DNA of 64,000 nucleotides, taken from NCBI GenBank assembly GCA_964016885.1, contig OZ024747.1, forward strand, positions 79,422,001-79,486,000, given 5' to 3'. Numbering within the stretch: position 1 is the stretch's first letter; each line of letters starts with the position of its first letter. Position numbers and translations under genes: made by a program. Below, one piece after another: positions 12,913 through 62,340 of the stretch. Source of the DNA: Eledone cirrhosa (taxonomy: Eukaryota). A model generated the notes under the pieces. It ran no database searches and was not told the origin of the DNA. It was given only the letters and a program-made list of their open reading frames with translations.

Positions 12913-13127
12913 TAATGATAAAAGGCTAAATTGATGGTGGGATTTGAGCTCAGAGTGCAGAAACCCAGAACAAATACTGCCATAGCATTCTAGTCAACAT
13001 TCTAACGACTTTACCAATTTGCTTCTGTACAAAATAAATCGCATAAACTTAACAAATATTTAAAGTAAAATCAATAATTGTGTTTTTATTCATAAATTGA
13101 TTTAATCTTTCTTCTCTTTTGTAAAAG

Positions 13128-14098
13128 GTCAGGTTCTGCAACTGCCACAGTTGGAAAAGGAAATGATTCCATCTTTGATGATCTTTTATCAAACTCTTCA
13201 GGATTAAACTTCGTACAAAATACTGAGCCAACTTCATCCATACATCCACAGGATTCTCTTTCTCAATTAACTCCTTTCTCCACTGCATTGTGTATTTTCA
13301 ATGATTTCATTATTGTCTGTTCTGTTGCTAATGATGTGTGCACTGTAAACATATATCGAAAAGAGGATACATCTTCTGTCTCTGAAAAAAATGTCACCAG
13401 TACCTTGGTGGTACCATACTTCAGTAAATATGTCCCTATGCAAAACTATGACAGTCAGTCATGTGGAAAGTACATGAATCTTTATTTAATTACATCTTCT
13501 GACAATTCTTTAGTTCACTGCTCCCAAACCATCCAACTTCCATCCATGGTTTTCAGTTCGTTGTTTGGTGCAGAGGCCAGTATATTACATTCAGCTGTGA
13601 TATTATTAACTATGCCATCTGGGTGTGTTTACCATTTCCCTCTTAAACAGTGGACACCTCAATACAATTCCGTGGGTTGCAGCCTGTCTATCCTCTGTAA
13701 TCTGAATGCTCCAGTTGTCAAAGTATGTTTTATTCATCTCCAGAAACAATTTGACAGTGACCCACAAACTGAAACCCTATCTAATTCCCAACTGGTTGCA
13801 CCTACCAGAGAATTCCATTATTTTCCATGCTTACTTCTGGCTGCTAAGAATGGCAAATGTTTTGTATTTTCTTCACCAAATAATTTCAATAATCAACTCA
13901 GAGTACTAGAGACCATTAATTTGGAAGATTGTCCAATATCAGACTGTTGTTTGGGAATCAAACCACACCAGTTAATCTACACAACAAAGAGAAAGATTAT
14001 ACAACTTCATTTTGTTTATAATGAATCCATTAGACAAATCCACAAACAGATTTCATCTTTGTCTAGAATTTCTACCTTGGCAACTCTTCAACTAAAAG
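13128..14098 (+). CDS. FAAP100: FAAP100-like exon 3
   Basis: Open frame containing FSSLFGAEASILHSAVILLTMPSGCV, similar to the FAAP100 signature FGLLFGADATLLQSPVILCGLPDGQL; AG/GT borders. Confidence 0.85.
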
Positions 14099-14200
14099 GT
14101 GGGGTTTATATATTTTTTTTTATATTATATTTATTTCTCCGATGTTTATGCTGTGAATCCCGATTAGATATATACATGTGTGTTTTTATATTTTTTTTAG

Positions 14201-15076
14201 ATGACAACACGTTGCTATGTTTATCCACACATGGCCAATTCCACAAGCTATCTATATCTGAAGAAGGATTTAAGATGAACACAAAATTGAAACAAGAAGA
14301 GGAATCTATTCCACAGCTTTTTGCTCAAATGGAAAACATGAGTAAAAAGATTACAATAGCTTCAGAAATGTTGGAAGCTCAGTCCCATATAATTTCTCAG
14401 TTGGTTGTTGGCAGTCACATTATGTGGAGACAGTTTGTGTCTAGCAATATCCAGTGTAAACTGACTGTTGACAAAGACAGCTATGGAAAAACAATCCTTC
14501 AATGTGTGCTGACTAATGGCAAGCTAACTTTCTCGTCTGACTGGTCATTTCTCATTGAAGCTACAACTAAACAAAAATGTCAACAAGGAAGTCACACAGC
14601 GTGTCACACTTTTAAAACTTTATCTCTTGCCAATGGTTTAAAGCCTGAGGAATCTGCCAAGATTGACTTTACATTGGATATCTTGGCACCATCAGACACT
14701 AGAATTTGCATTTCTGCTTGGCTTGTATTCAACTTAAAATCTGGTATGTTTTATTTAGATTCTCCAAATGAAACTTCTAAAAGTTTAAAAACCCAACTCT
14801 CTAAGGGATTGGCTATTCCTATTTATAAAGGAAACACTGATTTCTTATCTTTTATTTTACCTTCAGAAAGGAAAGAATATAAGATCCATTCCATTTCAGA
14901 GATAAATGTTCCTTCTTTAACTTCAATTGTACAAAAAATTGCCTGTGATAAACCAATCTATAAAACTTTTTCTGACCTCCACAAAGATCTTTCTACTGAA
15001 TCAGAACAGATGTTAACTTATACAATTGACATTCCTCCTTCTCTTCAAACTTTCCTGTTTAGTCATAGCTGTACAG
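14201..15076 (+). CDS. FAAP100: FAAP100-like exon 4
   Basis: T-rich AG acceptor, GTAAAT donor; coiled-coil segment followed by LQCVLTNGKLTFSSDWSFLIE, similar to FAAP100 CVLENSS..LDQGWTLCIQ. Confidence 0.85.
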
Positions 15077-15947
15077 GTAAATATTCAAATTCCATTTTAA
15101 TTTAATTTTATTCATTTTGTATAATTTGATCATTTTTCTTACTAAGCATGTATCTGTTATATTTTTACCATTAGAGGTTTTTATTTGTTTTGGTACTGTT
15201 TAACTCTTTCATTAACATATTTCTAATCTAAAATATTGCCTCTGATTTTCTGTTAATTTTGAAAATAATTGAAAATTTGGATGGATTTAGTAATATAACT
15301 AACTTTCTCATTATTAAATTGGTGCTCAAAGCATGACTTAACAAATGTTCTTGCATAAAATTATGATGGCAGGCTTTTAGATAATTATAGACATTTTAAA
15401 ACAAAGTTATTTTATTGTCAAACCAGTGGCGGTTTCAGGTGGGTTGGTATCAAAATATGACAGAAACCTGTAATTTAGTGGTTCCTTAAGAAGCTATGAA
15501 TGGCTTGTGAGAACCAACAATCTGATATAACTAATCTCATCACTTCCTCTGTCCCGAGTACATTCTAGTGTCAACACAGTAGTTTTTCCATCAGCAGTCA
15601 TTGTTCAATTACATCTCATGATTATATCAGTGCATCTAATGTTGCTCTTCAACATTTAACTTTTGTTTTTTTTCTTATACCAAGCAACACTTTATGTATA
15701 ACCTTTTAATTCTTAATGTATGTACCACATGAAATCACATTAATAAGACATTCTTGAAAAGTACAAAACAGCACCATGACTATCACATTAAATATTAACC
15801 TCTTTACTCTAACACTGCAAATTTTGACAACAATCTGTCTACTAGCAAAGATACTATAAACATTTGAATGAACAAACCTGTTTTTAGATATTTTCTACTA
15901 AATCATTACAGGATGTTAATAGTTAATCCTAATTTCTATTCTGAAAG

Positions 15948-22700: not shown

Positions 22701-24094
22701 AATGATTTTTTTTTTTTCAATTTAGGCACAAAGCCAACAATTTGGGGGAAGGGAAGAGATAGTCAATTAAATCAGCCCTAGTACTTGACTGGTACTTTAT
22801 TTTATCGTCCCTGGAAGAATGAAAGGCAAAGTTGAACTCAGACTGTAAAGGGATGTAACTAAATACTGCAAAGCATTTTGTTCAACATTAACAATTCTGT
22901 CAATGTACTGCCCTATTCATAATAATAATTACAAATTCTGAGAGTAAAACATGCAGCTCAAGATTTTCAAATTAAATGACGTTATAATATAAGGATGTTT
23001 TCCCAGGGAATATGGTTGGTTAGCTCCAGCTGGTATTTAAAACCAGACATCAGAAAATAAAAGTTTAGAATTTATTTATTTACAATTAAAAGTCAGCAAG
23101 CTAGCAGAAACTTTCATAAAATGTTGAACTAAAACACCTTAAAATATTTAGTTTAATCTATCTATGATCAATAAAATATATACCAGTAATATCATATCAT
23201 ATATATATATAATTCAGATTCTTAAAGCCTGATGGAATTGTAAGGGCAGTGCTGTGATATACTGTACACCAGTCTTTTATATCTGTTGCAGTTGCATGCC
23301 AGGTCTCCACTAAGGATCTGCCTATCCATCTTTTTCTTTATCTTCCTCTTCTCACCTTTTCCACAGTTCCTTGCATTCAAGGCTACAAGCTCTTGTTACA
23401 TGGCTATACCATCACATCTTTTATTTACTATTGTGGGAAGGAAAGCGAGGACAATGTGATGTTGTATTGTTTTGCAGACCTACACATTTCTGATATGCTC
23501 TAAGTATTAGACACCAGGAGGTTGATTATATCTACTACCCTGCAAAAATCAACCCTATACCTGTTTCAAAATTCAGTATTTATTATACATTTTATAAGGA
23601 TAGAATCAATTTTTGAGAATGAACCTATGTGAAATTGTACAATTCTTTTCCTTCCCAAAGCCAATAACAATATATAGAATACAGTTACAACAAATTACAA
23701 TTTCTTTTTTTCAACCTTCTCAGTGTATTACTGGTACTTATATTACTGACCATGGAAAGATGAAAGACAATGTCCTTGGCAAGATTTGAACCCAGTATTT
23801 TTAACTATTATCTCTCTCTCTAACACTTTAATAATAATAATTTCTCACTGACACAAATTTGTAGGGGAAGGAATATATTTCAGTATGTGACCAACTGGTA
23901 ATTTTAATGACCCTGGAGAGCAAAAAAAAAATCAACCCAGTACAATTTGAACTCAGCATATGGGAAGACAGAACTAAATACTGTTAACTATTCACCGCCC
24001 TATTAATATTAGTGTTTTTTTTACATTGGCACAAAGGGAAGGAGTAAAGTCAAATTTAATTGACTCACAGTATATGACTGGTACATATTTTGTC

Positions 24095-24966
24095 AGTCTC
24101 GTATATCCGATTTCTATACGATAAAAAAGCGTACCAAAGAACACAAGACTTTACTAACGTCTGGGTGAGCAAACAAAATGAAAACTTTCTACTAGCATTA
24201 GCTCAGCCGATGTACAAAAACATCCTCAAAAAAGTAGCAGAAGTAAGCAAGGTGAAAACACTAAACACACCTTTCAAACAGAAATTTCTCGACAATGATT
24301 GGGACTACTACATTAATATAGACAACATAAAAATACATGAGCATGAGAGTGTTTAAGAAAAAATTAGAAATCCAAAGTATAGACATTCAAGAATTTGTCC
24401 AAGACTTATGGGACCTATTAAACCAAACTTGGCCGAAGAAAAATACCTTTGTCATGGAAGGTGTACCCAACAGTGGAAAGTCCTTTATTACTAAATCGAT
24501 AGCTAAACTATTCAGATATACCAGCACAATACACGGAACCTCGTCATTTCCTTTTATGGACGCAGTTAACTGCGAGATTATTATTTTCGAAGAACCAAAC
24601 ATGATGCTGGAAAGCTTCATCCATTTAAAAAATTTTCCGAAGGAACAGACTGCTCAGTGGAGGTTAAATATAAACCTTCAGCTAAAATAACCAGGATGCC
24701 AATCATCATAACTTCAAACTCTCCTTTCGATAGAAATGCGAGAAAGAAGCTTTTAAAAGCACTGATTAAGTACATGTTCAGACATGAATCACACTTTCTC
24801 AAATCAACTCAACTACAATTGGATCCTAACATTTGGAAGCAATTGTTCAATGAATACGTAACCGAGTTAAGTTTACAACACAAAATATCAGACGACGAAC
24901 TAAATATAAATGAGGTGCGTGATGCATTAGAAATGCCAATAACAAAGAGACCTGAAAACAACGAAC
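24095..24966 (+). pseudogene. NS1: Endogenous parvoviral element: NS1 SF3 helicase fragment with two frameshifts
   Basis: Walker A PKKNTFVMEGVPNSGKSF, Walker B IIIFEEP, B' FKKFSEG...VEVKYK and motif C PIIITSN, spread over three overlapping frames. Confidence 0.88.
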
Positions 24967-25639
24967 AAGGATGAAAGGCAAAGTTGACTCTGGCAGGATT
25001 TGATGATGATAATAATAATAAGTTTTTAATTTAGACACAGAGCCAACAATTTTAGAGAAAGTCGATCCTATCAACTGGTACTTCATTTTATCAACCCCCG
25101 GAAGGATGAAAGGCAAAGTTGACATTGGCAGGATTTGAACTCAGAAAGAAAAAGCTGTAACTAAATACAAGGTATTTTGTCTGATGCTCTAATGATTCCA
25201 CCAATCAACCATGCTAGTAATAACAATAATCGTTTCAAGGAGTATGAAGCCCCCAGGTTTGAAACAGAAGGGGAAATAAGAAGTGGAGACCTACATGCTT
25301 TTCCCTTGAGTATTAGCATTATTAAAGTTATATTTGCAGTGAGTCACAATGTTATTTTGATGAAAACCTACCATCAATAATAAATACATTTTTTTCTAAT
25401 TTTGGCACAAGACCAGCAATTTGGAATGAGGTGGGGAGTCAATCCAGTATTTGTCTGATACTTTGTCGGACCCGGAAGGATGGAAAGTAAAATTGACCTT
25501 GGTGGGATTTAAACTCAGAACTAGATAGCACAAGACATTTTGCTCAACTCTCTAATTCTACCAATTTACCACCCTTACAAATAATTTTACTATAATGTCA
25601 CAAAAGCTAGTTGTAGAGGACAATGTCGAGTTGACTGAA

Positions 25640-26700
25640 CCAACCACAGCCGAAAAGAGGTAGTCATGGTTCTAGGACAGCATTCTTCACCATATGAGAT
25701 GTCATCTAGTGTACCACAGAGATCTGTTCTTGGTCCCCTTTTGTTTGTTGCATACATTAATGACATAGATGCCAACTTAAAGAATGCCACAGTACTGAAA
25801 TATGCAGATGACATCAAGCTGTACCTTGAAATCAAAAGGACAGATCCTGAAATCTATAACTCTTTCCTACAATCAGACCTGGACACAATGCAGCAATGGA
25901 TCACAGACTGGCAACTGAAGCTGGCTGTGGACAAGTGTACCACCATGCATTTTGGGAGGAAAAATCCAGCATCCACATACTCCCTCCACAACACTGATAT
26001 CAAGAAGTCCTCTTGTGAACATGACCTAGGCATTACTGTCAGCAACGATTTGCATTGGACAAAGCACATCTCTAAAACTGTCAAGGCATCACTCAGCAAG
26101 ACCTTTATTAGCCACTCTCCAGCCATCTATTTAAAGCTGTATACAGCTGTGGTTTGACCACACTTGGAATTCGCATCATCAGTCTGGAACCCCTATCTTG
26201 CTCAGAACATTGACCTCCTGGAAACTGTTCAGAGACGTGCAACCAAGCGCATACCCCCCATACTCTGAACGCCTTGCTTCCCTGGGCATGGATTCATTGA
26301 AGCTCCATCTGGCAATGGACTTGGCAAACACCCACAGTTTTTAACCATGTCGCCAACAACAATCCTGAGCACCTTTTTGATCTCCATGTGTCTAACACAC
26401 ATGGACATGCCTATAAAGTCAGAAAACAGCATAGCTCCCACGACTTTCGGAAACATTTTATCATGCTTAGAGTTGCTGAAACATGGAACAAACTGCCTGC
26501 GTCAGTTGTTAGCTGCCGAGACACTGCATCCTTTAAAACACTGATGCTTCCCGAAATTCGCCAAAACTACACCTGATGTCTCCCTTCCATACACATGCAC
26601 ATATCATGACTCATGCTGTTCATTTTCCTGACGTTTGTACATTACATACACTTTTGATGAGTTGTAGTGCACCTGAGCACTGTACACAATATTTTCATTG
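25640..26700 (+). mobile_element. 5'-truncated CR1-like LINE (RT C-terminal region plus 3' UTR)
   Basis: SSVPQRSVLGPLLFVAYINDI...KYADDIKLY...WQLKLAVDKC...THGHAYK...RVAETWNKLP; stops and frameshifts; the 3' tail recurs elsewhere in the window. Confidence 0.92.
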
Positions 26701-32629: not shown

Positions 32630-33163
32630 TTAGCAACCATCTTTACAACCCACAACGGCACCTATTATTATCCATAAAACTATTCCGGCAACAATACTGA
32701 TGTATATAAAGCACACAGCTAGTTTACCGTCTCTTTGCATGAGGCCATACAGTCCTTTGGACTGGTGTTTCAGTGTCTTCTGTACATAGTGATACGCTAC
32801 AAGTGCTGTAGGGAAAAAGAACACAAAGCTGACACAGGACGCAATCAAAACCCATTGCAGATGTTTCCAGGGTCGTGGTAGCATCTCTGCAGAGGGCACA
32901 CGCCGTACCATATGAGGAACGGAAACTGTTGTTTCTCTGTATGGGTTGTCCGTTGTGTTCATGAATACTGGTTCTATGGAAAATGCTCTCATGTCCTCGG
33001 GACCACCGCCAGAGGGTGTGTTTTGGTCAATCAGTGAAGTAACATCCACTGACATGGCTCCATTGTGGGCATTTAGGTCGGCAGTAAAATCACTGTCCTC
33101 ATGGATCTCCTTGTGTAAGGGCTGCCTCTCACTGGAATGGTTGCCATTGTCACCAGACGACAT
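32630..33163 (-). CDS. CD225/dispanin-family (IFITM/PRRT-like) membrane protein, 177 aa, single coding exon
   Basis: Disordered N-terminus, then P..HL.WVLIASCVSFVFFFPTALVAYHY...G.Y...A..GKLA..FIYISIVAGIVLWII (two hydrophobic segments, CD225 pattern); TTTTGCAG acceptor opens the exon at 33213. Confidence 0.85.
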   Translation of the reverse strand: MSSGDNGNHSSERQPLHKEIHEDSDFTADLNAHNGAMSVDVTSLIDQNTPSGGGPEDMRAFSIEPVFMNTTDNPYRETTVSVPHMVRRVPSAEMLPRPWKHLQWVLIASCVSFVFFFPTALVAYHYVQKTLKHQSKGLYGLMQRDGKLAVCFIYISIVAGIVLWIIIGAVVGCKDGC

Positions 33164-34750
33164 CTTTCTAGCAGCAGCTGTCTTCTCACGTACAGAAGAA
33201 ATACACGAGGCCACTGCAAAATAAAAAATAAAAAAACATTTAATACATTCCAACATAATTTCAACACATGCAGTAAACAAAAATTAATGTTACTTGTTTC
33301 ATACAAAGCAGAAAGGTAAATGTAATCATACACTTTATACACACACACACACATATATCATCATCATCATCGTTTAACGTCCATTTTCCACGCTAGCATG
33401 GCTTAGACGGTTTTTTTTCCATTTGATGCAGGAATGGTTGGGAGACCATGTCTCGCTCACACGGAAGTGTCTCTGGCATTTTTTTTTTATATGTATATAT
33501 ATATATATATATAGTGCCATGATAAAATATATTCACCTCACTTTGTAAAGTGGTTGGTGTTAGGAAGGGCATCCAGCCATAAAATCCATGGCAAAATGGA
33601 ACATATGAGCAAGATGTGGTCATTTGTCCTGCCTAGTCTGAGAAATTAACAACATATCAAACCCATGTCTCCATAGAAAATGGATGTAAAACAGTGATGA
33701 TTATATATCTTCATCATTTCTTTTACATCCACGTTTCCATGCTGGTATGGGTTGGACAAGATGTTTTGAGACAATGTTTTACATCCAGATACTCTTCCTG
33801 ACACCAACCCTTGTAGTCACATCTTATAACATACAGTCTATTCTAAAGTCTGAGAACCTCCATAACAATTTTATGTAAGAACCTTTGTTATGTTTTGCTC
33901 CAAACACCCAATCAAAATCATAAGCAGTGTCTATCATTAAAAATATGGTAACAAAGGGGTTAAACCAGACAGGTTTAACATGAATGTCTTATCACTTTCA
34001 TTACGGGGCACAGCCTTTCTGCCCCCATGCCCTAGGTCCAATAACCCTCCCCCTTCACCCCTCCCCTCTCTTCTGCGACACCAGAGCTCTTGCCATCGCC
34101 TTCCCGTTCTTTTTTTCTTGCTTTTCTTCTTTTTTCTCTATACTTCCCTATTCTTTTGTTTCCTTTTCTTTTTTTATTATTGCCATTATTATTATTATTT
34201 GGATTGGCAGAATTGGTAGAAGGTCGGACACCATGCTTTGCAGCATAGAATTATGTCCCCTTATGGTCTGAGTTCAAATAAAGTACCAGTAATGTACTGG
34301 GATAATTGGTGGCCTTGTGCCAAATGTAGAAACAATTATTATTATTATTATTACTGTAAATAAAGTTTATTTCAATAAAAAACAAAATTTAGTGTTTGAT
34401 TCAAGTGTAACTATAAATGTTGGTGAAAGGCTTAGGACAATATACTTAAATGAAGATTTATCCATTAGCTACAGGTTAACGAGCTAAGTGAAAAGCTTCC
34501 TAGAGTAGCTGTTCTACATTTTCTAGTTGTTGCTGTAGGTTAAGAGATAAGCTTCCTAAATGATTCAGCTACTCTACATGTTGTACTTGTTGCTGTTATT
34601 AGTTCTTTGCAAGCAAACTTCATCATCATCATTATTTTACATCCACTTTCCATAATCTCAGTGGTTGAACGAGTTGTCACGATCCAAGACTAGACGTGTC
34701 TGACAATTATATCTCACTCAGCAACCATAACAATACACCACGTGTTTGTG

Positions 34751-36198: not shown

Positions 36199-37860
36199 AT
36201 CCTAGAAATATATTAGTAAAATATAATCAACAACAACAATAATAATGGTTTCTTATGTAGGCACAAGGCCAGCAATTTTGGGGGAGGGAACAGTCGATTA
36301 AATCGACCCCAGTGTGTGACTGGTACTTTATTTTATCGACCCCGTAGGGATGAAAGGCAATTGAAGGCAGTTCTCAGGTGTTCTGAAAGGGCAAGTATTC
36401 AGATTTGATCTGAAAGTCTACACACGTTAGTTAATTCCAGAGAGCTGGAGCGGCAAGATTTGAACTCAGATCGTAAAGGGACGTAACTATGCTGGAAAGC
36501 ATGGCGTCCGACCCTCTACAAACACTGCCAATCCACTGACATACTTCGCATCCATTGGTCCTTAATTCTTGGGCAAAATAAACCTGACAGGGCCCCATCC
36601 CTCTCCAGGTCAGAATACAGTCATTTACTCTCAGAGAAAGTATTGACCCCTTTATTGAACAGGAATTTTATTTATTAGCCTCAAAAGTACAAAAGACAGC
36701 AGGATTTGAACTAAAGGCACAGAGAACCAGAATAAATACTACAAAGCATTCCATCTGACTTTTTAACAACTTAGGAATTTCACACAACCTCTCAACTACA
36801 ATCACAGCTGGAAGGATGTAGTGATACCAGTGGCAGCAGGATTTGATGTAAAACACAAAGATGACTATTACTAAATATCAAAATAACTGTCAGTTCTTTA
36901 TAACCACCAGCTCAAATAACAATATAAAATGATCCTATTATTCCAGGGCATGGTATTTTTATATAGTACGATGTACAAGTGTTTGAATGTCGCATGGTGT
37001 CTAGTTTGATATACAAATGATTGAATGTTGTGTGCTGTGTCATATATACAGGTGATTGGATGTTGTGTGGTGTATTTATTTCAGATCAAAAATCAATCAC
37101 AAAATGAAGCAGGGCAATGTTGGGGAGGGGCTAGTATATTATTACAGCTATAAATTTGTTGGTCTTAATACACACATACCCAGTGAAATGAGAGCGAGAG
37201 AGAGTCAGAGACAGATAGAAATAAAGAGAGATAGAAAAACAATATATAGAGAGGGGGGGGGGGAACAAGCTGCTATTTTAAATGATATTGATAACAAACA
37301 TCTGTCAGGAAGACAGAGACAATTATGGATTTGGTTGCTTTGATATATATTTGTTCTATTGTCTGTAGAGTATTTTTACTGGGAGAGTGACATACATTTT
37401 AATGTGATGGGTTGGGTGAGGCAGTGGCTGACATTATCTTCACAACAAAGTGAATACTGAAGATAGTAATGAGATATTAGAACAACAACATCAACAAAAC
37501 ACTAACACTAAAACAACAACCACCAACAACAACTGTAACATCAACACCAACATCAACAACACCACCAACACCAGCAGCTGTAATATCAACAGCAACATCA
37601 ACAACAGCACATCACCAACACCAACATCAACAACACCACCACCAACAACACCAACACCAACACATCACCAACCACAACAGCACATCACCAACCACAACAG
37701 CACCATCAACAACAACACCAACTGCTGCTCACATTAAACACGAAAGCAATATGCAGATAGCTGTGTAGTTAAGATGTCACTTCAAAACCATAAACTTCAG
37801 TTCCATTGTGTTTTTATTAGAACTTTGTTAGTGAATTTGGAAACTATAAGGAAGCCCGTT

Positions 37861-38848
37861 AACCCTCCCTAGTGTTGGTGTAAAGTACCAAGAGGACTCT
37901 TCAGTAGTGTCAACACAACAACCTCCCTAGTATTGGTGTAAAGTACCAAGAGAACTCTTCAGTAGTGTCAACAACATAACAACCTCCCTATTATTGGTGT
38001 AAAGTATCAAGAGAACTCTTCAGTAGTGTCAACAACATAACAACCTCCCTAGTATTAGTGTAAAGTACCAAGAGAACTCTTCAGTATCAATAACAACAAC
38101 CTCCCTAGTATTGGTGTAAAGTACCAAGAGAACTCTTCAGTTGTGTCAACAACACAACAACCTCCCTATTATTGGTGTAAAGTATCAAGAGAACTCTTCA
38201 GTAGTGTCAACAACATAACAACCTCCCTAGTATTGGTGTAAAGTACCAAGAGATCTCTTCAGTATCAATAACAACAACCTCCCTAGTATTGGTGTAAAGT
38301 ACCAAGAGAACTCTTCAGTTGTGTCAACAACACAACCTCCCTATTATTGGTGTAAAGTATCAAGAGAACTCTTCAGTAGTGTCAACAACATAACAACCTC
38401 CCTAGTATTGGTGTAAAGTACCAAGAGAACTCTTCAGTATCAATAACAACAATCTCCCTAGTGTTGGTGTAAAGTACCAAGAGAACTCTTCAGTTGTGTC
38501 AACAACACAACAACCTCCCTATTATTGGTGTAAAGTATCAAGAGAACTCTTCAGTAGTGTCAACAACACAACAACCTCCCTAGTATTGGTGTAAAGTACC
38601 AATGGAACTCTTCAGTAGTGTCAATAACACAACAACCTCCTTAGTGTTGGTGTAAAGTACCAATGGAACTCTTCAGTTGTGTCAACAACACAACAACCTC
38701 CCTAGTGTTGGTGTAAAGTACCAATGGAACTCTTCAGTTGTGTCAACAACACAACAACCTCCCTAGTGTTGGTGTAAAGTACCAATGGAACTCTTCAGTT
38801 GTGTCAACAACACAGTGACCTTCCTAGTGTTGGTGTAAAGTACCAATG
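37861..38848. repeat. ~57-61-bp tandem satellite, about 17 units, with trimeric higher-order structure
   Basis: Unit AACCTCCCTAGTATTGGTGTAAAGTACCAAGAGAACTCTTCAGTAGTGTCAACAACATAAC; three variants recur in order. Confidence 0.95.
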
Positions 38849-57479: not shown

Positions 57480-58010
57480 ATGTTACAGTGTAACAAAAAC
57501 ATCCCTCTGATACTGTTGGTGTTACAAAAGGGTAGCTGACATTTGTTACAACAGTAAGAAGAAAAAAAGGAGTCAACTGACACTGTTTATTATATAATAA
57601 TAATAAAAATAATAAATCCATGTAACAAAATACCAGAGGTATGTTACTATGTAACAAAAACAAAACACTTCTATGTTACTATGTAACAAAAACAGATGCA
57701 TGTTACAATGTAACAAGAGACAAAGTTATGTTACTATGCAACAAAAACAGATGCATGTTACTATGTAACAAAAAGAAAAGTCATGTGTTACTATGTAATA
57801 AAAGATAAAGGCATGTTACTATGTAACAAAAATTACAATTTTATGTTACTGTCTAACAAAAAAAAACATGCTACTATGTAACACAAATAATACAATTTTA
57901 TGTTATTGTGTAACAAACAAAAGAACATGTTACTATGTAACAAAAATAATACAATTTTATGTTACAATGTAACATAAAAGCAGATACGTGTTACTGTATT
58001 TGTAACAGAG
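57480..58010. repeat. Degenerate ~27-32-bp tandem array with palindromic core TGTTACTATGTAACA
   Basis: About 13 clear cores between 57640 and 58010, separated by variable A-rich linkers. Confidence 0.88.
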
Positions 58011-58159: not shown

Positions 58160-58409
58160 ATGATAATGATTTTTTATTTAGACACAAGGCCAACAAGGAG
58201 GGGGAGTGGAGTTGAGTATACCGATCCCAATATATGACTGGTACTTCATTTTATCGACTTTGGAATGATGAATGGCAATATTGAATTATAATAATAATGA
58301 TTTTTAATTTAGACACAAGGCCAGCAATAAATATATGTGTTTATATAAGTGTATAAATGTATGTATATATAAATATTTGTGTGCGTGTATGTGTGTGTGT
58401 GAGTGTATA

Positions 58410-58447
<38 letters not shown>

Positions 58448-61400
58448 TAACTAATGAACAAGTTAGAAAAGCTTTTAATAAATTTCAAAATATGAGAGAA
58501 GAAAAAAACAAGTTGCCCATCATAAAAATTCAAGATGAAGAATAAAGAAATAATAATAATAATGATAATAATAATAATAATTGTTTCTACTTTTGGCACA
58601 AGGCCAGAAATTACCCAGTACATTACTGGTACTTTATTTTATCGACCCCGTAAGGATGAAAGGCAAAGTTAACCTCGGCTGGATTTGAACTCAGTCCGTA
58701 AAGGGACATAACTATGCTAGAAAGCATGGCGTCTGACCCTCTACCGATACTGCCAATTCACCGCCCTTAATAATAATAATTGTTTCTACTTTAGGCACAA
58801 GGCCAGCAATTACCCAGTGCATTACTGGTACTTTATTTTATCGACCCCGTAAGGATGAAAGGCAAAGTCAACCTCGGCGGGATTTGAACTCAGATCGTAA
58901 AGGGACGTAACTATGCTGGAAAGCATGGCGTCCGACCCTCTACCGATACTGCCAATCCACTGCACATACCCAAGGTACATAGAACCGTGCTCAGTAAGGT
59001 AGTTATATCACACAGCGAAATTAAGATTAATGATGATGATAATAATAATAATATTAATGGTTTCTAATTTAGACACAAGGCCAACATTTTAGGTGTGTGG
59101 GGGGAGTTGATTATATCAACCCCAGTATTTCACTGGTACTTTATTTTATCAACCATGGAAGGACAAAAAGCAAAGTTGACTTCAGTGGGATTTGAACTCA
59201 AAATGAATATCGCCAAGTGTTCTACCCAACACCTTTAAGGCTTTACCAATTTGACACCTTCATGATATTAATAATTGTTTCTACTTTTGGCACAAGGCCA
59301 GCGATTATATCAGTGTATTACTGGTACTTTATTTTATCAACCCCGTAGGGATGAAAGGCAAAGTTAACCTTGGCGGGATTTGAACTCAGACCATATGAAT
59401 TATCAACATTCTAGAAGTGTTTGAAATTTCAAAATGTATGAATGCCGAAAATAACTGTAATAACTGTCACCCACTATAGAGAATAGTTGTATAGTGATCA
59501 ACTGTTATGAGTTATTTTCTACATTTGGGACTCTCACATTATTAATAATGTATTTAAATCTTTAAAATATAACAACAAATGAAAATAAAAGCAGTAAAAA
59601 TAACATATTTCACGCTAGACATTTCTATAATTCCTTCACCATATTCCAGTAGAATAGTCATAATTACCAAACGTCAAAATCTATGATATTCAATTCCTAT
59701 ATTCCTTACTATACACATACACACGCATACCTGCGTACACATATACACACTCATACCTGCGTACACACATGCATATCCGCATACACACACACACACAACA
59801 TTTCACATACCACACGAGAAAGAGAAAAATAAGAAAAATAATGCTAACAACAACAACAATTGTAGTAGTAGTAACAATAATAATAATAACAACAATAACA
59901 ATAATAATAATAGTAAAAAATAATAATAATGATTTCTTCTATAGGCACAAGGCCAGCAATCTTTGGAGGAGAGGGGAAGTCAATTAAATTGACTCCAGTG
60001 TGTGACTGATAAAATAATATGGTTTCTAACTTTAGCACAATGCCAGAAATTTTGGAGTAAGGGGTTAGTGGATAGTTGAATAACTAGACTTCAATATTTT
60101 ACTGGTACTTTATATTTTAACAATCTTGATAGGATTTGAACTCAGAAGATAAAGTCTAAAGTCTGTCTCAGGCCAGAAGGCTCATGAGACCGGTGCTTAT
60201 TCTGGTTTTGTGGTATGAAGCGACTTTAAAGGGTCACCATAATAACATGTTGTAAAGCTTTTTGTCTGATTCTCCACCAATTCTGTCAATTCACCATTCT
60301 TAACTGCTACTTAACTGGTACTTTATTTTATTGACCCCCAGAAAGATGAAATCAAAGTTGATTTCAGTGGAATTTGAACTCAGAATGTAGAGTTGAAGTA
60401 AATACCAAAGGACTTGGTCCAATGCTCTAACAATTCTACCAACCCACCACTTTTATAATAGTAATAATTATAGTGTTTCTACTTTTGGTACAAAGCCAGC
60501 AATTACCCCAGGGCATTGCTTGTACTTTATCCAAAAGGATGAAAGGCAAAGTTAACCTTGACGGGATTTGAAAGAGGAACGTAAAGGGTCATAACTCTAT
60601 GCTGCAAAGAATGGTGTCCGACGACCTACCGATACTGCCAAACCACCAATAATAATAATAATAATCATCATCATCATCATTACTGTTTAACGTCCATTAG
60701 TAATAATAAAACTCTGGTGTAAGGCAACACATTTGTAAATAAGGAGCATAAATGTTAGAATCAACTCCAGTATATACTTGATCATCATCATCATCATCAT
60801 CATCAACATGATGACAAAGTGTGATCAAACCTGGCACTTAATGATTGAGAAATGAACACATTAACCCACCCACCCATGCCTGCACCCGAGATACTTATTT
60901 AAATAACAATAACAATCATTCCTTACATTGGTAGAAGTCCACAATGTTTGTGTAGTAATTCAAATACCCTCACACCCAATCCCTGTTATTTTATTTAATC
61001 AACCTTAGAAGAATGAAAGGCCAAGTGAATATAACAAACAACAACAATAATGAAATTATTGTGTACAGTGCTCAGGTGCACTACAACTCATCAAAGGTGT
61101 ATATATAGTACATAGAATAATGTACAAATGTCAAGGGAGGTAACTACTAGTTATTTGCACTGACATTCTATCCACTTCAGTTTACTAAAAATATATAAAA
61201 TAATAATAATGATAATTGTTTCTACTTTTGGCACAAGGCCAGCAATTATCCCAGTGCATTACTGGTACTTTATTTTATCGGCCCCGTAAGGATGAAAGGC
61301 AAAGTTAACCTCAGCGGGATTTGAACTCAGACCGATACTGCCAATCCGCTACCTAATAATAATAATAATAATAATAGCTTCTAATATAGGCACAATGTCC

Positions 61401-62340
61401 CTTCTCTGATTCTTATTTTATTGACTACAGAAGGATGAAAAGCAAAGTCAATCTCTAGAAAGGGATTTAAATTTACACGGTAAAAGGGATGTAACTAAAT
61501 GTCACAACACATTTTGTCCGATGCTCAAACGATTCTTCCAATCTACCACCCTACTACTACTAATAATTACAATAACAATTAGATCAGCACAAGGCCACAC
61601 ATTTATAGAGAAGAGGCATAGTCAATTGAATTGGTCCCTCAGTATGTTACTGGTACATTTAACAAGATGATGATGATGATAATTTCTTACCAAGGTACAA
61701 AAGTGTGAGAGAAATGAGAGACATTACAGCAATCATGTAGTTTCCCCTGTAAGTAAAGTAATTCTAACTAGGATTTGAAACTCATTTGTTTCCCTAATTA
61801 ATCACTAAATACTAATTACAGTATAAAACCTGCAACTAAACAACACTGCATATACTCACGGTACCCACAACTGTGCTCAGTAATGCAGTGACAACACAAT
61901 ATATAAAACTAATGATGATAATAAAAATAGTTTCTAATTTATGCACAAGGCCAGCAATTTCAGGTGAAGGGAAAGCTGGTTAAATTAATCCCAGTACTTG
62001 ACTGGTACTTTATTGTATCGTCTGTGGAAGGATGAAAGGCAGAGTGGGATTTAAACATAGAATGTAAAGAGCTGGTACTCATACCATAAAGTGTCTGGTG
62101 CTCTAACAATTCTCTCAATCCACCATACTACAAAATAATAGGTACAAGGCCAACAACTTTGGAGGGAGGGAAAATTGATTAAATCTACCCCAGACATTAC
62201 TGGTACTTTATCTATTAACCCCTGTAAGGATAAAAGGGCAAAGCTGACCTCGGTGGGATTTGAACTCAGAATGTAAAGAGCTGTAACTCTATGCCACAAA
62301 GTATAATGTCTGATGCTCTACCGATACTGCTAATCCACAA
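58160..62340 (-). mobile_element. Dense cluster of same-orientation SINE family A copies separated by (AAT)n
   Basis: More than a dozen full or partial copies, e.g. 58575..58766, 58778..58962, 59270..59392, 61212..61352. Confidence 0.85.

Follow-up and report, generated by a model that had tools for sequence, protein, structure and literature searches.

An 864-nt piece taken from the central part of the NS1 gene of a parvovirus lies at positions 24103-24966 (+ strand) of the window, by which is meant the whole 64-kb stretch of Eledone cirrhosa contig OZ024747.1 analysed here; in all likelihood it entered the germline independently and is dead, having decayed by less than about 9%. This endogenous element is an internal fragment spanning residues 163 to ~449 of P0001, the best-matching protein, homology to which begins at 24102 (residue 163) and fades at 24923-24946 (residues 442-449). 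Its content is the NS1 helicase middle, with no HUH endonuclease domain, capsid gene or hairpin. Replication and packaging are therefore impossible, since the endonuclease domain, the capsid gene and the termini are all missing. Parvovirus genomes are linear ssDNA of 4-6 kb that carry a capsid gene and terminal hairpins; here the DNA on either side of the insert consists of SINE and LINE sequence. A previous sequence-only reading had put the ends at 24095 and 24966, which is nearly right; the true limits, 24103-24966, follow from the alignment of the two halves of an interrupted SINE (see below). That reading had also described the stretch as A-rich and as carrying the SF3 helicase motifs in order, and both descriptions hold. 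The proportion of A is 0.40 and the AT skew 0.24, values that are exceeded only in subwindows of the 36.9-38.4 kb region. All four motifs were located between 24460 and 24719 on the + strand: Walker A (GVPNSGKS, 24460-24483), Walker B (IIIFEEP, 24577-24597), motif B' (EG..VEVKYK, 24639-24674) and motif C (PIIITSN, 24699-24719). Three overlapping stop-free frames occupy the site (24078-24353, 24331-24687 and 24570-24971), and the motifs sit, in that order, in the second and third of them. The longest inverted word of the insert, a perfect 14-nt palindrome at ~24561-24574 within the NS1 frame, is probably due to chance. An Rfam search of the window gave no match.

Homology to NS1 is significant by several procedures. 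In the profile search that had been proposed to check the parvoviral assignment, Pfam Parvo_NS1 matched the second frame with 36.8 bits (E 2.7e-9), and a phmmer search of the 93-aa core against 1.84 billion proteins gave 206 matches at E<=0.001, the best (E 1.8e-28) being P0001, with 63% identity over the core. P0001 is colinear with all three frames (tblastn sum E 2.6e-57), its identity ranging from 38 to 63% according to the segment. Word-indexed protein searches were nearly blank, returning either nothing, P0001 alone, or P0001 and P0165, and scans of IMG/VR and of JGI metagenomes found no locus. Five NS1 segments can be delineated, all on the + strand. The first (24102-24338) is the helical region that precedes the helicase, with 30/79 residues identical to P0001 163-242 (BLASTP E 6e-17). 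The second (24337-24615) contains Walker A and Walker B (58/93 identical to P0001 243-335) and is the one recognised by Parvo_NS1, while the third (24615-24740) contains motifs B' and C (19/42 identical to P0001 336-377). The fourth (24740-24760) is a short conserved stretch in the third reading frame, identical to P0004 at 7/7 positions, to P0151 at 6/6, to P0005 at 5/7 and to P0001 at 4/7. The fifth (24759-24946), the frame of which gives a BLASTP E of 9e-19, comprises the helicase end and the start of an acidic C-terminal region (18/55 identical to P0001 388-442), and the insert is truncated a little further on.

The reading frame was followed by a frameshift-aware alignment of the insert to eight natural relatives. 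Frame changes near 24335 and 24615 appeared with every relative that reaches those sites. A compensating pair near 24740/24760 was recovered with four of the eight; at this site three others aligned in one frame with gaps, and the alignment with the last one stopped at 24740. About three codons present in the relatives are missing from the insert between 24740 and 24760. The compensating pair hides the conserved motif of seven codons in the third frame, and had been missed when the fragment was said to be broken by two frameshifts only: at least four frame changes are present. Because the first break precedes Walker A, a working helicase is impossible. The lack of internal stops was, by contrast, correctly noted, the aligned path being free of stops with each of the eight relatives; the stop at 24972 that closes the last frame is supplied by the host SINE and not by the virus. 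Nine relatives have 35 invariant residues in common; the insert retains 30 of these and differs at 5, which points to a loss of constraint. One of the clade-invariant residues lost here corresponds to R388 of P0001, a conserved Arg, and is located at a break.

Under four mutation models, the 268 stop-free codons limit substitution per site to at most 6.3-8.9% (95% upper bound), a figure that is somewhat optimistic because the stop-free path was picked by an alignment that penalises stops. The observed/expected ratio of CpG is 0.83 in the insert, 0.41 in the window and 0.30 in a LINE fragment lying ~0.7 kb away, a broken non-LTR retrotransposon at 25639-26573 (+; RVT_1 50.8 bits). The view that the infection was fairly recent is thus only partly borne out: the absence of stops and a decay bounded at ~6-9% favour it, whereas at least four disabling frame changes, also carried by the short-read contigs described below, have accumulated.

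The insert interrupts a copy of a repeat of ~200 nt for which nhmmer finds 53 matches across the window. On the minus strand, this repeat displays motifs resembling the consensus of an A-box and of a B-box and a (TTA)n tail, and is therefore identified as a tRNA-type SINE, which I take to belong to an octopus repeat family; its motifs were not matched in two of the three supplements of PMC4824008 or in the main text of PMC4758252. The 3' (tail-side) half of an old long-form copy, the host target, occupies 24016-24102 (-), with 63-80% identity to five out of five intact long-form copies. Taken alone this half is weak (nhmmer model 18-98 at 24026-24095, E 0.11), but its alignment to each of these five copies scores above all 300 shuffles. 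The other half, up to the B-box-like motif, lies at 24967-25003 (-; model 105-142, E 1.4e-7), with 32/37 positions identical to the host majority, and a neighbouring intact copy follows at 25021-25215 (-; model 7-224, E 1e-42). On the aligned copies, the end of the left half falls within 2 bases of the start of the right half, so that the two are contiguous both in model coordinates (98/105) and at the base level, and it is their junction alignment that sets the limits of the insert at 24103-24966. No target-site duplication, poly(A) or loss of host DNA was found at the junctions, where the longest shared word is 4 nt. The insert is antisense to the SINE that it splits. The left SINE half differs by 20-37% from the long-form copies, themselves 73-83% identical to one another, and is as diverged as other old copies; set against the bound on the decay of the insert, this divergence makes it likely that the SINE predates the insert.

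The SINE family exists as a short form, which is young (up to 96% identical to the majority), and as a long form that is older. About 19 matches stand densely at 58164-62338, head-to-tail and on one strand, and a second split copy is found at 36242-36539 (model 2-120 and 131-221), with ~90 nt of other DNA between its two parts.

Very probably, viral DNA was end-joined a single time into a blunt break that a germ cell had suffered within an old SINE, and has decayed neutrally since, presumably without any function. Parvoviral DNA would have been present in the nucleus of a germ cell of a probable octopus ancestor when a blunt break occurred inside a SINE that had already diverged; end-joining would then have inserted 864 nt of viral DNA with an overlap of 0-1 nt, leaving the host DNA intact, and the allele would have been inherited and gathered indels thereafter. 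An unlikely alternative is that the SINE and the viral piece arrived together, a LINE reverse transcriptase having switched template from SINE RNA to a viral nucleic acid and back to the SINE. Such a double switch predicts that the SINE picks up at the very base where it broke off, without duplication at the inner junctions, as is the case here, and the density of SINEs in the window and the proximity of the LINE reverse transcriptase fragment are in keeping with it. However, joint arrival sits poorly with a SINE half that is 20-37% diverged next to an insert that is decayed by less than about 9% and has kept its CpGs, the insert is antisense to the SINE, and the mechanism requires two switches at one and the same position.

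Small-RNA immunity derived from endogenous viral elements is established for some such elements of arthropods. The Eledone insert could likewise have been retained for the antiviral piRNAs or siRNAs that it would supply against a circulating virus, an RNA-level role that I rate as quite improbable. The frameshifts would be irrelevant to such a role and the site is dense in repeats; in addition, immunity derived from IHHNV endogenous elements is mentioned in the available portion of PMC11357303. On the other hand, the insert is single-copy within the window, a tblastn search with 164 NS1 proteins having found no second NS1 match there, and the nearest known relative, at 38-63% protein identity, is too far for that virus to be targeted through RNA.

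To judge whether the donor was a parvovirus or another carrier of an SF3 helicase, parvoviral and papillomavirus models were compared. Pfam alone leaves the family unsettled: the second frame gives 36.8 bits with Parvo_NS1 and 32.6 bits, above its cut-off, with PPV_E1_C, but on the third frame (segments 3-5) PPV_E1_C leads with 32.2 bits, also above cut-off, against 24.2 for Parvo_NS1, and P0005 and P0151 are near ties between the two models. Parvo_NS1 nonetheless scores higher than PPV_E1_C in 20 of the 21 matches scanned. Searched against the PDB, a profile built from 13 relatives gives 80.8 bits with AAV Rep, 70.4 with another parvoviral NS1 and 43.5 with papillomavirus E1. The AlphaFold model of P0001 has a mean pLDDT of 66, with values of 77-97 over residues 161-420. 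In BFVD, the top 50 fold matches of this model comprise 46 of parvovirus type, one from Bidnaviridae, one Vesanto virus and two unnamed, with no papillomavirus, and the five leading entries are unclassified 'Parvoviridae sp.'. In the Atlas clusters ranked first for P0001, Parvo_NS1 makes up 98-100%. HUH motifs are defined by an HxH and a Y-containing element, and both are visible in P0001, P0165 and P0007; in P0001 this N-terminal part is modelled with a pLDDT below 56, and no Pfam Rep_N match was obtained. A non-parvoviral donor, whether a papilloma- or polyoma-like or bidnavirus-like virus or a transposon with such a gene, is therefore very improbable: the lead of PPV_E1_C on the later frame, the single Bidnaviridae and Vesanto virus matches and the lack of a capsid context speak for it, and against it stand the scores of AAV Rep and E1, the fold and cluster matches, and the HUH-like N-terminus of P0001, encoded on a contig of 4,017 nt. 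The insert is a parvoviral NS1 rather than a papillomavirus E1, as the sequence-only reading had it.

The presence of the insert in raw reads was also assessed. Four runs, from two samples of one study, contain all 99 sampled words; three of these four (X1, X2 and X4) were used for the read checks, together with one of three RAD-Seq runs (X5). X1, X2 and X4 each gave a single short-read contig extending from 23300 to ~25000, in which the insert is free of substitutions and indels and which reaches 800 nt beyond the left junction and 33-34 nt beyond the right one. Both host-virus junctions are thus spanned in three runs of one study, as an integrated sequence had been expected to show, and the spanning contigs together with the split SINE confirm integration into host DNA. 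Since the contigs from the three runs have the same letters, the frame changes are genomic. The assembly may have been built from these very runs, which rule out an assembly error but are not evidence of fixation in the species. X5, from a second study, covers ~80 nt of the insert at a depth of ~1 read, which is not enough to be counted. The contigs are unbranched at the left junction, which fits the insert being on both haplotypes. The joint 24102-24967 expected of the empty site is not among the 15 listed of 63 joints, those listed belonging to other SINE copies. Contaminant viral reads joined through the SINE, with long-read errors for frameshifts, would account for two junctions in a high-copy repeat, the right one spanned over 33-34 nt only, but this has next to no credibility given three short-read runs out of three that are identical, free of indels in the insert and accompanied by 800 nt of left flank, and given that a live virus would not have four frame changes in NS1.

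Several other features of the window deserve mention. A stop-free frame of 669 codons at 13096-15102 (+) is FAAP100-like (Fanconi anaemia core complex), its sole PDB match being weak (E 0.3); the hydrophobic stretch around codons 335-370 of this frame looks like a short in-frame intron. A frame of 217 codons at 32633-33283 (-) ends with a CD225/dispanin (IFITM-like) domain that scores 25.5 bits against a cut-off of 27.1. Tandem repeats comprise a satellite with a 16-nt unit at 1-2517 (157 copies, 95% matches), which continues past the left end of the window, 61-nt units at 37864-38846 (16.5 copies), preceded by an (AAC)n run where the A skew of the window is highest, and 59-nt units at 57620-57995 (6.5 copies).

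Phylogenetic analysis, which had likewise been suggested as a check, groups the insert with parvoviral sequences of Octopus bimaculoides and Lamellibrachia. In a tree of 40 rows, containing 39 of 144 references picked after a first tree, the core forms a clade of 14 rows with ten unnamed proteins and A0A0L8FGN6, A0A0L8GWZ8 and KAI0231278.1 (support 98/92), and this clade is whole in 100% of 200 bootstrap trees. In a larger tree of 146 rows, built with both pieces of the insert and 144 references after removal of 13 redundant cluster members, P0151, P0044, P0132 and regions shorter than 150 aa, the clade contains 15 rows (SH-like support 93). The only named proteins among the ten best matches are A0A0L8FGN6 and A0A0L8GWZ8 of O. 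bimaculoides and KAI0231278.1 of Lamellibrachia satsuma. That the nearest named proteins come from an octopus, together with the SINE family, makes the cephalopod host that had been proposed plausible. The clade has a signature between Walker A and Walker B, T-[IV]-Q-G, found in 15 of the 151 proteins tested. The affinity with hamaparvovirus- or densovirus-type NS1 that had been proposed from the pattern KN..G..N.GKS..EEP could not be upheld. The pattern occurs in 49 of 150 matches from many clades, including P0067, and is absent from P0001; moreover, an AU test rejected the grouping of the insert with P0067 and its three neighbours (p 0.023, over 92 columns, with one depositor-labelled reference and no ICTV exemplars). 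The donor virus would instead belong to an unclassified clade from which, judging from these trees, O. bimaculoides and Lamellibrachia received copies as well.

Animals commonly carry parvoviral fossils. Since, in addition, octopus members of the clade were published in 2016, the existence of this element is in itself unsurprising. The available part of PMC5013282 (Francois et al. 2016) describes, for one mollusc, two genomic sequences related to parvoviruses, and its supplement gives KOF81493 and KOF62817 of O. bimaculoides as well as Lamellibrachia, Sepia and Euprymna sequences; the printed residues of the two octopus sequences match P0006 and P0002. According to the same source, KOF81493 is genomic with an adjacent transposable element, its best BLAST match is an iteradensovirus (32% identity), and the mollusc sequences branch outside known genera. 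As excerpted, PMC13426907 recognises six subfamilies, of which Hamavirinae (formerly Hamaparvovirinae) contains vertebrate viruses only, and warns that depositor virus labels are often wrong. The portion available of a 2024 review of aquatic parvoviruses (PMC11357303) does not contain the word 'octopus' and names no cephalopod virus, and that of PMC13055364 describes NS1 fossils of flatworms without mention of molluscs. No paper on this locus was found in the literature searched, the coverage of which excludes most subscription journals, and PMC5013282 was the only source of octopus parvoviral sequences therein. The parvoviruses of cephalopods had been called poorly characterised; they are indeed thinly described, but their listing in PMC5013282 means that they are not new.

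The interest of the locus is threefold. Its base-exact junctions within one SINE copy make the empty site recognisable in relatives and the insertion datable; a probable third octopus insertion ties the clade to cephalopod hosts; and the closest match is an intact NS1 whose contig, of the size of a genome, gives a concrete lead. An attractive but tentative hypothesis, to which I would give somewhat less than an even chance, is that an unnamed parvovirus lineage of genus or subfamily level, with marine lophotrochozoans (octopuses and tubeworms) as hosts, has invaded octopus germ lines at least three times and is circulating still, the contig of P0001 being its genome. If so, this contig would lead to the first cephalopod parvovirus, and the split SINE would be an exact fossil calibration.

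How does the insert compare with known sequences? The O. bimaculoides proteins KOF62817 (A0A0L8FGN6, XP_014789984) and KOF81493 (A0A0L8GWZ8) are NS1 helicase fragments of the same clade, relative to which the Eledone insert is longer, frameshifted and provided with base-exact junctions. Its protein identity to them, ~51-54%, is below its identity to P0001. As the sister sequence of the insert, A0A0L8GWZ8 is rejected (p 0.0002) whereas A0A0L8FGN6 is not rejected (p 0.17). Orthology with the O. bimaculoides copies would be unlikely because 51-54% identity contrasts with a decay of less than about 9%, and the insert is, on sequence grounds, probably the third independent octopus insertion from one clade. 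P0001, a full-length NS1 of 593 aa on a 4,017-nt ENA contig, is colinear with the insert over residues 163-449 but unbroken and endowed with HUH-like motifs; the size of its contig suggests that the latter may be the genome of an exogenous virus. The Lamellibrachia elements, such as KAI0231278.1, belong to the same clade and share T-[IV]-Q-G, are ~45% identical to the insert and form a subclade of their own (100/98). Clusters related to them have several copies on contigs of 97 kb-1 Mb, unlike the Eledone insert, which is a single short piece. The P0007 and P0008 clusters comprise several near-identical NS1 copies of 490-535 aa on the same contigs of 117 kb-1 Mb, and P0009 has another N-terminal part after its helicase, layouts that suggest the existence of tandem arrays of parvoviral sequence in the tubeworm subclade. 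Hamavirinae, represented here only by P0067, which its depositor labelled 'Luscinia cyane Ichthamaparvovirus', share the KxN..G..N.GKS..EEP pattern with the insert, but P0067 is 35% identical to it and falls in a separate clade. Finally, the IHHNV endogenous elements of shrimp are, in the available parts of PMC11357303 and PMC12287923, also parvoviral DNA without hairpins in the germ line of an aquatic invertebrate; these elements, however, derive from a named virus of penstyl type and are widespread in crustacean genomes, whereas Eledone has a single NS1 fragment whose lineage is unnamed.
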